A DNA stretch of 63,465 bases, the filler included, from Globobulimina sp. (Eukaryota), in NCBI GenBank assembly GCA_003354225.1. It is 33 parts of 33 records of this genome, joined end to end, with 100 filler letters (N's around TTAATTAATTAA, not from the genome) between each part and the next. Parts side by side here need not be neighbours in the genome. Positions count along the whole stretch, not along the records: positions 32,758 to 34,583 come from PIVH01011487.1; 32 more parts are not named here. One strand, 5' to 3'. Below are positions 3,857 through 48,000 of this stretch, in pieces; position 1 is the first letter of the stretch, and the number at the start of each line of letters is the position of its first letter. Below the pieces are notes generated by a model, which was given only the letters and a program-made list of their open reading frames with translations, was not told where the DNA came from and did no database searches. The position numbers were made by a program, and so were the translations under genes.

Positions 3857-5683
3857 GTAGAAGTGGATTTTTGATTTTTAAACGTTTAATTTAATTTGTA
3901 AATTTTATTCACTGTAAATACATTCCATTTGTGTATATTTGAATAAAATAATATAAATTTGTTTCTAGTACACATTTTACACAACAAAACACAAAAAATA
4001 TGTAAACAGAAATTATATTGTTAGTAACAAAAAGTGAAAAGAGGGCAGACCAGGATAGCAATAAGAAATTTAGAGTGAAAACGGCTTGGTGGCGTTAGCA
4101 CTTATCCAAACCGTAGGTTACAATTTTGAATAATAAGATTATGTTTGAAAGCACCGAGTGAACGAGAGGCTATTCGTTCTGCTGTCAGTTTATTCCATTG
4201 ATTAACAATCCTATTTGCAAAGAAGAATTTTCTAGCATTTATACGACTTTTTTTTACTATTAGTTTTGCTGGATGGCCACGAGTGGTACCTTCTCTGATT
4301 TCAAAGAAATGGTTAAAATCGAGATCGATAAGATTATTACGTATTTTGAAACACAAAGTTAGGTCAGTTTTAATTCGTCGTCTTTCGAGGGTTTCTAAAC
4401 CGAGGTAGTCAATACGATCCTGATAATTCGTTTTTGGTAAATTACATCTTTTAAATAGTCTTCGCGTAAAGTATCTTTGAACCTTTTCTATAATAACAAT
4501 GTCTTTAACCAAGTGAGGATTCCATATAGAGGGACCTGATTCGACTATAGGACGGACATAAACTTTGTATGCTCTTAATAAAGTTTTGGCAGTTTTACTA
4601 CGAAAAACACGAAAAATTAGGGCAGAAGTCCTAAGCGCTTTTGCAGAGATTATTCGACAATGAGTGGAAAATTTAAGGTTGGTTGTGACTGTGTAGCCCA
4701 AGTCTCTAATAGAAGAAACGGATTCAAGTTGATGATTAGCAATAGAGTATGTAGATTTAACATTGTTATGGCGATTAGTGATATTTAACGTTTGGCATTT
4801 AGTTTCAGATAGTCTCAATTGCCATTTTTTAGCCCAGTCAACAATACTATCTAGATCAAATTGGAGAGAAACAGAATCTAAGTTAATGTCACTTATTTTG
4901 CGATAAAGTTTTACATCATCAGCAAATAATCTAATATTAGAGTTAGGTACACAATCGGTAATATCATCAATAAATATATTAAAAAATGTTGAACCAAGGA
5001 CTGTACCCTGTGGAACTGAACTAATTACGGGAATTAGGGAGGAAACCTCTGAACCAATATATACCCTTTGGGTTCTGCCAGTAAGAAACGCGGAAATCCA
5101 TCGTAAAGCTTTACCAGAAATACCATAAGTTTCAAGTTTAAATAGCAATTTTTGGTGTGATACAGTATCAAATGCTTTGGCAAAATCAAGGTAAACTACA
5201 TCAGTGTCGCACCCTTGTTGCAAAAAAGTTGTCCAATCATTTAAACACTCTAGCATTTGAGTTATAGTAGACCTTTTAGACCTAAACCCATGTTGGAACC
5301 TAGATAAATGAGGTGAGAATAGACCTAAAATAGCCTTGCGAACAATTTTTTCTAAAGATTTACATACATATGAAGTTTGAGAAAGAGGGCGATAATTAGA
5401 AACTTTACAGTTTCTACCTTTTTTGAATATAGGGCAAACTAAAGCAGTTTTCCAGTCGACAGGCAATTCACCAGTGTCTATAGATTTTCGAAACATAAGA
5501 TAAATAGGGTAAGCAATACCTTTGGCAATACGGCGTAATAAATAGGCAGGCAAACAATCAGGAGTACGTGAGAGCTTATTAGGTACGTTTTTTACAGTTG
5601 TAAGTACGTCAGGGATGGATAACGGTACGGTATCCAGGTCACCTATTGCAGCCCGGTGGAAATCGGGTATATCTCCAGTATCT
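3857..5683 (-). mobile_element. Non-LTR retrotransposon (CR1-like LINE) 3' half: RT ORF (stop at 4102, frame open to contig edge) plus 3' UTR
   Basis: RT motifs NYRPLS, QHGFR, YLDFAKAFD, VPQGTVLG, FADD and DLG, with the C-terminal TRGHPAKL and FFANRIVNQWN typical of the CR1/L2 group. AATAAA and (AAATT)n-like tail near 3880-3910. Confidence 0.9.
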
Positions 5684-32657: not shown

Positions 32658-32826
32658 NNNNNNNNNNNNNNNNNNNNNNNNNNNNNNNNNNNNNNNNNNN
32701 NTTAATTAATTAANNNNNNNNNNNNNNNNNNNNNNNNNNNNNNNNNNNNNNNNNNNNTGCGTTGCCCCCTGGATCCACTTTTGGATTCATACAGACTCTC
32801 AGAGGGATGTTCGAGCAATCTGTGAG

Positions 32827-32883
32827 TCTGGAATCAGACCTCAGGCCTGATTGAATTTTGCCCCACTACTTACCTAGCTGTGT
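32827..32883 (+). mobile_element. MIR-like SINE fragment (possible mammalian contaminant at contig end)
   Basis: TCTGGAATCAGAC...TTGAAT...CCACTACTTACCTAGCTGTGT resembles the MIR core TCTGGAGTCAGAC...TTCGAAT...CCACTTACTAGCTGTGT, compared from memory. Confidence 0.4.
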
Positions 32884-33092
32884 AGTGTGTACAGATTAAT
32901 GAGATTGTAACATTATTGAGATTGTAACATTATTATACACCACTACTAGTATCCTAGAGAAACATTGATGATTAATAATTATAAAAAGAAGAAAATGAAA
33001 GTATTATTTTATGATTTAATTTAATCAGTATTGGACTGTTTTTAATCTAACACATTTTAAATATTAATTAATTAACAATACAACCATAGTTT

Positions 33093-34583
33093 TTAAGTAA
33101 ATATGACTTTATATTCAATGAGTAATGATTCAAGAACAAATAGTAAATACAAAACAGCAAAAACGTATGATAATTTTCGGCTTAATTTCCATTGAAACTG
33201 TTGTATTGATAGAATAACAAAAGCGACCATTAAAAATAGTGACAAAACCATAATTGTCATTCCATCCGATTTAATAAAAACACTTGAACCAGGATCAACA
33301 ATTGCGGTTTTAATGAACCATGGAAATGGTAAACCGAATAATATATCAAAAATATTTGATCCAATCGACGATGAGACCGCCATATCCCCTCTTCCTTTTT
33401 TTGCCACAGCCAATGATGACAACATATCAGGTATCGATGTACCCGCTGCTAATATGGTAATACCCATAATTGGCTCAGGAATCGATGCCGTAATTCCAAT
33501 TTCCGAGGCCATCCAAACCATAATATACGACAATGTCGCAATCCATAGTATACACGCTACAAACGATAAGCCCCAATATTTATCATTCATCGCTTTTTTG
33601 GTATCAACAATCGTATAAAACATTAAAATATGTAATGGCGACATTAATAGAAACATGCATTTATCATATATACTGTCATCAGCTGCGGATGGATAATGCC
33701 ACCGTTTTATTGGTCCATCATCATCTGCATCGGCATCAGCATCGTGACCATGATTCACCATCAGCATCGGCTTAAGTTCACCATCAGTCTGTATATTATC
33801 TGTAACAGGAACTATTGCTAAATTGAAATTTCCTTTGTAACTGCGAGATACTCGCGAACCACGAACAACATAATGTTCTTCAAAACTTTTAGTACCGTCC
33901 GACATTACAATCATTCGAATAGTTGGCGTTGTATCACGTTCAAAAAATAATATTTTTTTACCACATTTATCAGGTTGATGATCGCGAGCAGCTATATTCC
34001 GAATGCAAATGGTATTATCATATTGAAACTTTGTTTTTGCCATAGATTCAGGAGATAATCTGGTTTTACTTTTATTTTTATGCTCAGACTCTTGTATATT
34101 GATATTATCACTGGTTTGACTCTCATTTATCGATTGCAATGATGGCCGCGACGACGGCGATAAAGCCGTACTGATATTTGAGGATAATATCTCAATTTTT
34201 CGAATTTCAGATTCTAAGTTATCTTCTTCAGATTTTGGAATATTGCTTGAGTTTGACACAACAATCGCCATATCATTTGTTTGTGTACCCGTTGCAATAT
34301 GGATGGTATTCAATTGTTCCATTAATTTAAAAATTCGAAATGAACGCGCAGTACGACCTAATCGCAATAATCTCAATGCGCGGACAGCACCGGACCCTGC
34401 GGATTGTGTTAAAATATATTCCACGATGATTAAAACCACTAATACGCCATCCATCGCATTCCAAACATCGACCCAATATGACAATGGACCATAGCCATAT
34501 AATTTTAATGCCATTTCAATCACAAAAAATAATGAAATATAACGGTTTACCTGTTCCGCCATTGGCGACTCGTAAAAGAATAA
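33093..34583 (-). CDS. Voltage-sensing domain fused to the C-terminal half of a K+-dependent Na+/Ca2+ exchanger (NCKX/SLC24-like), 5' partial
   Basis: S2 [14 protein letters not shown]3 [10 protein letters not shown] and S4 [20 protein letters not shown], then the alpha-2 repeat [17 protein letters not shown]...[21 protein letters not shown] in the same stop-free frame. Confidence 0.9.
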
Positions 34584-46239: not shown

Positions 46240-48000
46240 TAAACGCCATAAACGACCATCGTATTGTTGATAAATACGTCAACCATTGCAATGCTTTTGG
46301 GAGTGATTCAACATGAATAAAAAAGCCAGAAAACAATATCATCAAAGCAACCAATGTTTGACCTTAAAATGTTTATATAAAAACACCTCAAACCCTTTTC
46401 ACATACAAAGCAGTATAGTTCACACCAATGACAGTCGCAGCTTCAACACTGGGCGCAACACAGCCGCACAAAAAGCCCAGTCCAATAGAACTAAAATTTT
46501 GCAGCACAGTAATCAACCAAAACCATAAAAACCTTCCAAACCGCGGGTTTAAGCCCACGATCCAATATAAAATCACTCCAAATACCACCGGGAATATAAT
46601 CTGTATCGGAATCGTCGATATAAAGGTTGTAATATAGTATATCCCCAATGAATATGACCTAGTTTGTCTCTCCCGCATTACAATGGATTTCTCCAAACAA
46701 AAGCCTTGCACCGTATTGATTATCGGCCCCATTGACTGCAAAATACACATAAAAAACAAAACGCCTTCTCGGTCATGAATGGACTCCTGGCTTTTACTGC
46801 CATTTGTTTTGCTATAAACACCGGAGATAAATATCGCAAATAGCATATTCATTACGATGCGAATAACAAAAGATCTTCGATCCCGTACCATTTGTCGGAA
46901 CGTACGTACTGACAAAGTCGATAACTGCTCAAACTTGGCCACTTTGATTGATTTGCCCGACCTACTTTCTTTATATTGGTTGGTTTCCGCAATCAACTGC
47001 TTACTATATTCATTAAACGTATATTTCCTCACAGACCTCGCTCTAAATTCTCTCGCATACTCTTGCACTAAAAATTCAATCCTTGCCTTTGATGTATTTT
47101 CTGCAGAATGAGAGCGCGTATCCACAGACACCAAATCTAAAAAGAAATCCGCTGGGTTGAAATATGCAGGACAAACATAACCTTTTTCAGCAAAATACGC
47201 CAATGTATCGTCACCCGAAGGTCCATGATATATTAAGCGACCATTTGCTAACAATATGATATCATCAAACAGTGTAAATATACTGCTGCGTGGCTGATGT
47301 ATGCTGGTTATGATAGTGCAACCATGCTCGCACAGCTTCTTTAAAGTTTCCACCACTTTCAAAGCTTGATAGCTGTCCAAACCACTTGTTGGCTCATCGA
47401 GGAATAATAACGACGGATTTCTGAGCATTTGGGTACCAATATTTGCACGCTTTCGCTCTCCACCGCTGACTCCACGAACTTGGGCATCGCCTATCTTTGT
47501 ATTGCGCGTATGTTTCAAATCTAATTCTTTCAATATACTTTCAACCAATTCTTGTTTTTCTTTGTCAGAGCTGGTGGCGTTGCTAAATTGAGCGGCGGTC
47601 ATTAATGTTTCATATACAGTTTGCTGATTAAATAATACATCATCTTGCTGGACAAATGCGGTCAGATTTGTGAATGTTTTGCCTAATTCATAGCGATTGA
47701 TACCATTTATAAGGATTGAGCCGCTTAACGTAGTCGCTCCTTTTGTAACTACTAAACGTTTGCTTATCACGTTTAATAGGGTTGTTTTGCCAGAGCCTTT
47801 TATATATGTAATATGCAATTATTATCATTATAATCCAGAAAACGTTTTTGTCAAAGTACAGTACAGTGATGCTTATGTTATTGACAATAATGTACAGTTA
47901 ACAATAATAGCCATTTTAATAGAATGTGGACAAATAACTGGAGCGTCACTGTACAGACTGTACAGTACCTGATGGACCCATGATTGCCACCAATTTTCTG
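46240..48000 (-). CDS. ABCG (White-family) half transporter, partial, introns 47968-47797 and about 46425-46364
   Basis: Spliced Walker A AIMGPSGSGKTT, VQQDD, signature VSGGERKR, Walker B LFLDEPTSGLDS, SIHQP, NPADF and an ABC2 membrane domain. Confidence 0.95.

Follow-up and report, generated by a model that had tools for sequence, protein, structure and literature searches.

Voltage-sensor domains are thought to control pores, and two exceptions are known, the voltage-sensing phosphatases and the sperm Na+/H+ exchanger SLC9C1. Excerpts from a 2024 review, 'Voltage sensors' (PMC13095418), name only these two as sensor proteins that are not channels, and in the abstract of a further paper SLC9C1 is presented as the one transporter known to be under the control of voltage-sensing domains (PMC10620092). 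In SLC9C1, which belongs to the CPA superfamily of Na+/H+ exchangers, the sensor is placed after the transporter part and is itself followed by a cyclic-nucleotide-binding domain. Here we describe a gene found in a 63,465-base stretch of Globobulimina sp. DNA (the window), which encodes part of a predicted exchanger of the CaCA superfamily. Judged from the window protein together with its full-length relatives, this is an exchanger with a complete CaV/NaV-type sensor (S1–S4) but no pore, placed in the cytosolic loop between transmembrane helices 5 and 6 (TM5–TM6). Like SLC9C1 it would thus be a secondary transporter with an S4-type voltage-sensor domain, although from a different superfamily and with the sensor between the two transporter halves. 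A cyclic-nucleotide-binding domain was not found by Pfam in the window fragment (E-value up to 1) or in 10 full-length relatives.

In the established topology of both NCX and NCKX exchangers the TM5–TM6 loop is cytosolic. NCKX proteins exchange 4 Na+ for 1 Ca2+ and 1 K+, which is electrogenic, and depolarisation therefore favours reverse-mode Ca2+ entry. NCX1 (SLC8A1) has the same ten-helix core as the protein described here and also holds a regulatory module in the TM5–TM6 loop, but that module is the soluble Ca2+-binding pair CBD1/CBD2, whereas the module here would be a membrane-embedded sensor followed by a disordered acidic linker. The animal NCKX1–5 (SLC24) share with it the alpha-1 and alpha-2 motifs, including GTSxPD and the Asp of GSNxFD, and a TIPDCRR-type segment before TM6; in contrast, the animal NCKX proteins in our match lists carried no Ion_trans domain and fell on the opposite side of a tree branch. 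The nearest sensor sequences are those of the four-domain CaV and NaV channels, which unlike the window protein have an S5–P–S6 pore. Ci-VSP, a voltage-sensing phosphatase, offers a precedent for a non-pore effector such as is proposed here, but its effector is a phosphatase and not a transporter in the same chain.

No description of a voltage sensor in a Na+/Ca2+, NCKX or other CaCA exchanger was found in the literature searched, which did not take in subscription journals, TCDB, InterPro notes or supplementary files, and this agrees with the initial annotation of the stretch, whose author knew of no characterised case. Two candidate prior descriptions were rejected, since a Phytophthora paper turned out to concern sensor-cyclase proteins and a pelagophyte paper listed PF00520 and PF01699 as separate genes. 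We estimate the chance that the fusion has already been remarked on somewhere as roughly one in four. The sequences are not new, as members are in public databases; what appears to be new is that the architecture has been recognised, together with what it implies. The only functionally studied protist relative found was PtSLC24A from Phaeodactylum tricornutum. According to excerpts of the report (PMC10982851), PtSLC24A has 651 residues, of which 12-183 and 489-651 were modelled and the 305 between them were assigned to an intracellular regulatory domain, and its knockout altered the rise of intracellular Ca2+ with cell density; voltage is not mentioned in these excerpts. The protein is similar in length, and its central region is sized like the sensor-holding loop of a 650-residue Hondaea member of the family described below. 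It was reported to have Asn544 in place of the Asp of GTSxPD that is invariant in the sensor-bearing family, and by this residue it probably lies outside the sensor-bearing clade.

The window protein (P0001) is encoded in one stop-free frame of 496 residues, which runs off the contig edge on its 5′ side and is closed by a TAA stop at 33095-33093 (Table 1). All motifs listed in the initial annotation (FFVIEMALK, WN..D, S4, GTSIPD and GSNIFD) were located in this frame. When the protein was scanned with Pfam at E up to 1, the two domains expected by the annotation, Ion_trans (E 8.8e-15) and Na_Ca_ex (E 1.1e-31), were found and nothing else. The Ion_trans match scored 55 bits against a gathering cut-off of 25 and covered profile positions 35-116 of 241, so that only S2–S4 is represented and the pore part is unmatched. 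The FFVIEMALK segment of S2 supplies the Phe-x-x-Glu and the Lys of the charge-transfer centre, and the Asp of WNAMD is its acidic residue in S3. In the S4 run every third residue is basic (six Arg and one Lys), a pattern that had been described correctly, although the run starts at 34382 and thus three bases from the 'about 34385' first given. Likewise, the end of S1 is present as claimed, but an alignment with the best relative (P0002, 808 residues) showed that it amounts to the last ~3 residues of that helix. S4 is not followed by S5, a pore and S6, which bears out the earlier reading: a 19-residue hydropathy scan gave no hydrophobic segment within residues 59-308. A phmmer search of the PDB with P0001 placed the repeat sensors of CaV3, CaV and NaV channels on top, with CaV3 first, among the best 60 of 79 matches.

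Between S4 and TM6 lies a linker which had been estimated at about 200 hydrophilic residues and was found to have ~210, with a mean Kyte-Doolittle value of -0.7. In the model of P0002 this linker is mostly disordered. Within it, an alignment revealed a module with ICIRN, FFE and IRLI..PDG..FEE elements that is specific to a subfamily of seven sequences (P0001-P0007). In the P0002 model the module coincides with a weak beta-strand region (strands 483-552) with a predicted local distance difference test score (pLDDT) of ~50-65. A Pfam scan at E up to 10 assigned it to no family and the ESM Atlas had no usable match; lying between the sensor and TM6, the module may act as an additional regulatory domain.

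The remaining part of the fragment is the second half of the exchanger. The best NCBIfam model was TIGR00927 (K+-dependent Na+/Ca+ exchanger), and the sequence points to a CaCA exchanger of the K+-dependent type that is closest to NCKX/SLC24. The Asp of SNxFD, which we take to be the residue tied to K+ dependence in mutagenesis work on NCKX2, was shared by all 12 further NCKX-type matches checked, mostly named animal NCKX proteins, although two of the 12 are flagged by our crude S4 detector; NCLX has an Asn at this position. We likewise assume that the Glu of GSAPE and the Thr/Ser and Asp of GTSxPD are ion ligands, as in work on NCKX2 and NCX_Mj. These residues suggest that the exchanger in the window may be K+-dependent.

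A word-indexed protein search with P0001 scored 8000 candidates and gave 2679 matches at E up to 1e-3; 120 of these matches were listed. PF00520 (Ion_trans) and PF01699 (Na_Ca_ex) occurred together in 94 of the 120 matches listed, according to a precomputed Pfam column, and in 92 of the 120 listed by a profile search. A crude detector looked for an S4 in which six or more of seven positions, spaced three apart, are basic, and 103 of the 120 relatives listed had one. Ten full-length relatives were scanned, and all ten had two Na_Ca_ex stretches with one Ion_trans ahead of the C-terminal one and no other Pfam family; in most of them Ion_trans matched profile positions ~1-117 of 241. The alpha-1 motifs and the NCBIfam matches lay N-terminal to the sensor in the full-length relatives. 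The predicted order of parts is therefore TM0, an alpha-1 bundle (TM1–5), S1–S4, the linker and an alpha-2 bundle (TM6–10), and the order alpha-1, sensor, alpha-2 is the one that the initial annotation had anticipated. Its proposal that a sensor sits in the cytosolic loop and leaves the topology of the exchanger intact gains support, as a hypothesis, from this order; the topology would be kept because four helices were inserted.

Conservation was followed in an alignment of 67 full-length members that were 35-61% identical to P0002, used as the reference. The S2 Glu and the S3 Asp were invariant (67/67). The aromatic position in S2 was Phe in 58 members and Tyr in nine, the S2 Lys position was Lys in 63 and Arg in four, and the S3 Asn position was Asn in 64 and Asp in three. 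The seven S4 positions were basic in 61, 66, 67, 63, 66, 67 and 63 members (91-100%), and a polar residue in the middle of S1, a helix that lies off the window contig, was Asn in 66 of 67. The exchanger motifs, GATxMAAGxSAPE and GSAxFN in alpha-1 and GTSxPD and GSNxFD in alpha-2, were invariant in all 67. Such a residue pattern in the sensor would be expected under selection for charge movement and not in a relic. The two connections of the sensor differed. The TM5–S1 connector was tightly constrained in length (31-41 residues, median 34), and two Tyr, a Met and an Asn in it never varied, which we read as a sign that the sensor and the exchanger form a coupled module. The S4–TM6 linker had 62-282 residues (median 113) and was usually acidic just before TM6.

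In the PDB, a profile built from the family matched whole S1–S4 units in chains of CaV3, NaV and CaV channels (best 60 of 238 matches). When the 108-residue sensor was used alone in a phmmer search of 1.84 billion representatives, 2375 matches were obtained at E up to 1e-3, a number that does not size the exchanger family because the four sensors of each channel add up. Almost all of the top 150 were four-domain channels with 30-39% identity and four matched stretches per channel, and among these 150 only P0006 and P0367 gave a single matched stretch.

Some members departed from the usual length of 640-800 residues. P0447-P0449 (890-917 residues) were ~100-200 residues longer, and two of them had no Ion_trans on record, yet scored 7 with the S4 detector; the precomputed Pfam column under-calls the sensor. 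P0462 (KAH8075817.1 from Aureococcus anophagefferens, 907 residues), annotated as 'calcium, potassium:sodium antiporter', carried PF14050 and PF04969 in addition; the crude detector found seven spaced basic residues and no Ion_trans was on record. Either a longer fusion or the merging of gene models could account for this protein.

AlphaFold2 models were obtained for two full-length relatives of the window fragment, namely P0002 (mean pLDDT 73.5, predicted template-modelling score (pTM) 0.69) and the Hondaea protein P0441 (mean pLDDT 82.4, pTM 0.78). In both models the exchanger core was predicted with confidence and the sensor formed four helices, with a largely disordered linker between. The core of the P0441 model matched human NCX1 (Z 34.5, root-mean-square deviation (rmsd) 2.3 Å over 358 residues) and also NCLX, NCX_Mj, YfkE, VCX1 and CAX1. 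The sensor of the same model, residues 220-344, matched CatSper (Z 15.3, rmsd 2.4 Å over 124 residues), CaV3.2 (Z 14.3, rmsd 1.9 Å over 119 residues) and Ci-VSP (Z 14.3, rmsd 2.8 Å over 123 residues) and superposed on NaV1.7 and NavAb as well, so that sensor matches overall fell at Z 14-15 over 118-124 residues. A Foldseek search with the P0002 model agreed, with a sensor rmsd of 2.6-3.0 Å over ~130 columns. There was no NCKX structure among the PDB sequence matches shown, including the best 60 of 79 and the best 60 of 238.

The sensor-bearing members that could be named come from labyrinthulids, euglenids and one cercozoan. They include GBG25547.1 from Hondaea fermentalgiana, which is named 'Sodium/potassium/calcium exchanger 1' and lies on a 342-kb genome contig, A0A7S2WRZ0 from Mucochytrium quahogii, the euglenids Urceolus, Keelungia and Petalomonas and the cercozoan Mataza. 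A further sensor-bearing member is CAK9005813.1 (NCBI), named 'Sodium/potassium/calcium exchanger 2'. An ESM Atlas cluster of 71 members was automatically named for both domains, and its members with a known phylum were mostly haptophytes. The names given to members at their source are plain NCKX, NCKX-like or uncharacterised. All animal proteins among the matches listed lacked the sensor. The architecture is thus kept across several eukaryotic supergroups.

A maximum-likelihood tree was built from the exchanger columns only, leaving out sensor and linker, and was unrooted. One branch, with a Shimodaira–Hasegawa-like approximate likelihood-ratio (SH-aLRT) support of 95, split 68 sensor-bearing rows from 12 sensor-less rows, and P0001 grouped with P0002, P0003, P0005 and P0006 in a clade of five rows (support 100). 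The tree fits a single insertion of the sensor followed by retention. The sensor was probably acquired independently of SLC9C1, because SLC9C1 was not among the PDB matches shown (best 60 of 79 and best 60 of 238).

On this evidence an NCKX-type core that looks fit for transport and a CaV/NaV-type sensor that looks fit for sensing belong to one polypeptide. How the sensor might act on the exchanger can be proposed from this architecture. Judging from the topology of NCX and NCKX, the sensor would have the canonical orientation, with the N-terminus of S1 and the C-terminus of S4 on the cytoplasmic side. Movement of S4 with the membrane potential would switch the exchanger on or off allosterically, and Ca2+ extrusion, or a block of reverse-mode Ca2+ entry, would thereby be tied directly to electrical signals. 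The likeliest routes of coupling would be the short conserved TM5–S1 connector and direct contact within the membrane, which are favoured because the S4–TM6 linker is long and disordered. Two polarities can be envisaged, as the sensor might shut the exchanger upon depolarisation or might activate it and so clear Ca2+ after an action potential. We infer the movement of the sensor, the control of transport, its polarity and the host membrane, and give voltage control of transport via the predicted sensor a probability of about 0.6. The wider proposal is more tentative and falls a little short of even odds: that these proteins form a family of K+-dependent Na+/Ca2+ exchangers, widespread and ancient among protists, in which exchange is truly gated by voltage, and a second class of sensor-gated transporters independent of SLC9C1.

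Several observations weigh against voltage control or against the evidence for it. The S4–TM6 linker is long, poorly conserved and probably disordered, and the rigid lever of the S4–S5 type found in channels is therefore absent. The contig shows S2–S4 and the alpha-2 half only, whereas the part of this gene that would encode alpha-1 falls outside it. Against TIGR00927, a model of 1209 positions built on animal NCKX, the fragment scored 170.5 bits, P0002 scored 373 and P0044 scored 409, all below the curated cut-off of 710. The pTM values of the two structural models are 0.69 and 0.78, and S4 had the lowest pLDDT of the sensor (66-74) in the P0441 model. The 12 sensor-less rows in the tree are few and were picked by similarity to the query. 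Finally, the sequencing-run contigs that cover the open reading frame (ORF) overlap by 6 and 26 bases at a depth of ~5 and none of them spans it, and the four runs containing the contig come from one sample in one study and are possibly the source itself.

This thin coverage, on a contig of only 1826 bp, is what might be seen if the assembly had joined a channel fragment to an exchanger fragment inside the linker. Three low-depth run contigs tile 33161-34514 and neither a loose end nor a joint was reported there, in line with the check on the linker that the initial annotation had proposed; little weight was given to these contigs, and the matter was settled by homologues. P0002 was 63% identical over 100% of the fragment and P0003-P0006 were 52-53% identical over 98-100% of it, and these five independent relatives from other sources were colinear with P0001 through the sensor, the linker with its module and the alpha-2 half. 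Nearly a hundred further proteins had the same order of parts. Six members (P0038, P0044, P0113, P0436, P0451 and P0456) bear names of transcriptome assemblies, which places both domains on one mRNA, so the independent homologues and transcripts whose absence would have undermined the annotation are plentiful. A chimeric join is so improbable on these grounds that we regard it as excluded.

Within a real fusion, the sensor could still be a structural relic or a scaffold for folding, trafficking or the binding of lipids or partners, with no voltage control of transport. Some channel sensors contribute little to gating, and a variable, disordered linker in which no coupling lever can be recognised is what a scaffold might have. 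There is also a human protein with a pore-less sensor, TMEM266, whose function is given as unknown in the excerpted review (PMC13095418). The gating charges of a relic should be lost, however, and in the 67 members the S4 positions remained 91-100% basic with the S2 Glu and S3 Asp invariant, in an architecture retained across several supergroups; we consider a relic or scaffold unlikely. Much less likely still is a sensor that itself conducts, through an Hv1-like proton path or a gating-pore leak, to give a combined channel and exchanger that might, for example, pass H+ alongside Ca2+ during calcification. Hv1 is a lone S1–S4 domain able to conduct (PMC13095418, excerpts), and the Hv1-type structure 3wkv was among the weak PDB matches (E ~1e-6). 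Against conduction, Arg or Lys fills each of the seven S4 positions and S2 retains its aromatic residue, an arrangement by which the gating pore is sealed, and the nearest sensors are CaV and NaV repeats and not Hv1. Hv1 has a short S4 with three Arg and an Asp in the middle of S1 for proton selectivity, where 66 of the 67 members have Asn. Voltage control of transport thus remains the reading that we prefer.

If voltage control is correct, a CaV/NaV-type sensor in a Ca2+ exchanger would be a third type of effector for voltage sensors and a second type of transporter, and the electrical excitability of single-celled eukaryotes would be linked directly to Ca2+ export. A built-in voltage switch could solve the problem of reverse-mode entry that depolarisation poses for an electrogenic exchanger. 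Were the wider proposal also true, excitable unicellular eukaryotes (foraminifera, haptophytes, labyrinthulids, euglenids and cercozoans) would switch Ca2+ extrusion by membrane potential, for instance by shutting off reverse-mode Ca2+ entry during action potentials or by faster clearance afterwards. The family occurs in haptophytes and, judging by the window, in foraminifera, both of which include major marine calcifiers. It is thus a candidate controller of Ca2+ handling in these organisms, with a possible link to calcification, and the proposal is testable, as full-length sequences such as GBG25547.1 are public and amenable to heterologous expression.

Table 1. Coordinates of the features on the contig that carries the sensor-bearing exchanger gene, counted along the window.
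Feature	Position	Strand	Description
Host contig of the fusion gene	32758-34583		1826 bp
Open-ended ORF (P0001)	33093..34583	-	C-terminal 496 residues of a predicted sensor-bearing NCKX-type exchanger; coding 34583-33096
Voltage-sensor domain, S2–S4 part	34299..34559	-	Ion_trans, residues 9-95
S2 helix	34491..34565	-	Residues 7-31; FFVIEMALK at residues 19-27, 34529-34503
S3 helix	34392..34466	-	Residues 40-64; WNAMD at residues 41-45
S4 helix	34308..34388	-	Residues 66-92; charged run at residues 68-86, 34382-34326
Hydrophilic cytosolic linker	33675..34307	-	Residues 93-303, ~210 residues; without hydrophobic segment or Pfam match
Subfamily-specific linker module	33804..34013	-	Residues 191-260; common to P0001-P0007 by alignment
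Second Na_Ca_ex repeat, TM6–10 bundle	33132..33569	-	Residues 339-484; Pfam E 1.1e-31
Alpha-2 motif GTSIPD	33443-33426	-	
Alpha-2 motif GSNIFD	33362-33345	-	
3′ flank of the gene	32758..33092	-	Last ~110 bases of the contig repeat-like (32798-32870)

The contig carries part of a genuine eukaryotic gene, probably a foraminiferal one, and encodes the C-terminal two thirds of its product. The alignment of P0001 to P0002 begins at residue 287 of the latter, and about 290-330 N-terminal residues, predicted to comprise a signal anchor, the alpha-1 bundle (TM1–5) and most of S1, would lie beyond the contig edge. The G+C content at third codon positions of the ORF was 0.29, and that of ten other ORFs in the window was 0.24-0.39, which fits an origin in the same genome rather than a contaminant. 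When three full-length relatives were compared with the window by tblastn, matches were found on the host contig only. Near the low-coordinate end of this contig, the segment 32798-32870 matched many short run contigs with a summed depth of up to 403, compared to ~5 over the ORF, and run contigs had loose ends at 32814-32849 within the 3′ flank; the segment has the look of a repeat dispersed in the genome or of a junction made in assembly.

The window as a whole consists of 33 contigs of 1825-1828 bp each, joined by N44-TTAATTAATTAA-N44 spacers, and the neighbouring genes are therefore uninformative about the exchanger gene. An Rfam scan of the whole window gave 0 matches, which left no rRNA by which to place the host. 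Among the remaining contigs are ones coding for common eukaryotic proteins (Rab, Arf, ABCG, P450-like and annexin-like) and for a reverse transcriptase. The latter is a 526-residue open frame at 4105-5682 on the minus strand with an RVT_1 match (E 4e-30), a retroelement copy on its own contig. The assembly is most likely foraminiferal, in keeping with the host considered in the initial annotation, because a fragment of an ABCG half-transporter at 46391-47818, also on the minus strand, shared 82% identity with a Bolivina argentea protein and 74% with one of Nonionella stella in EukProt.

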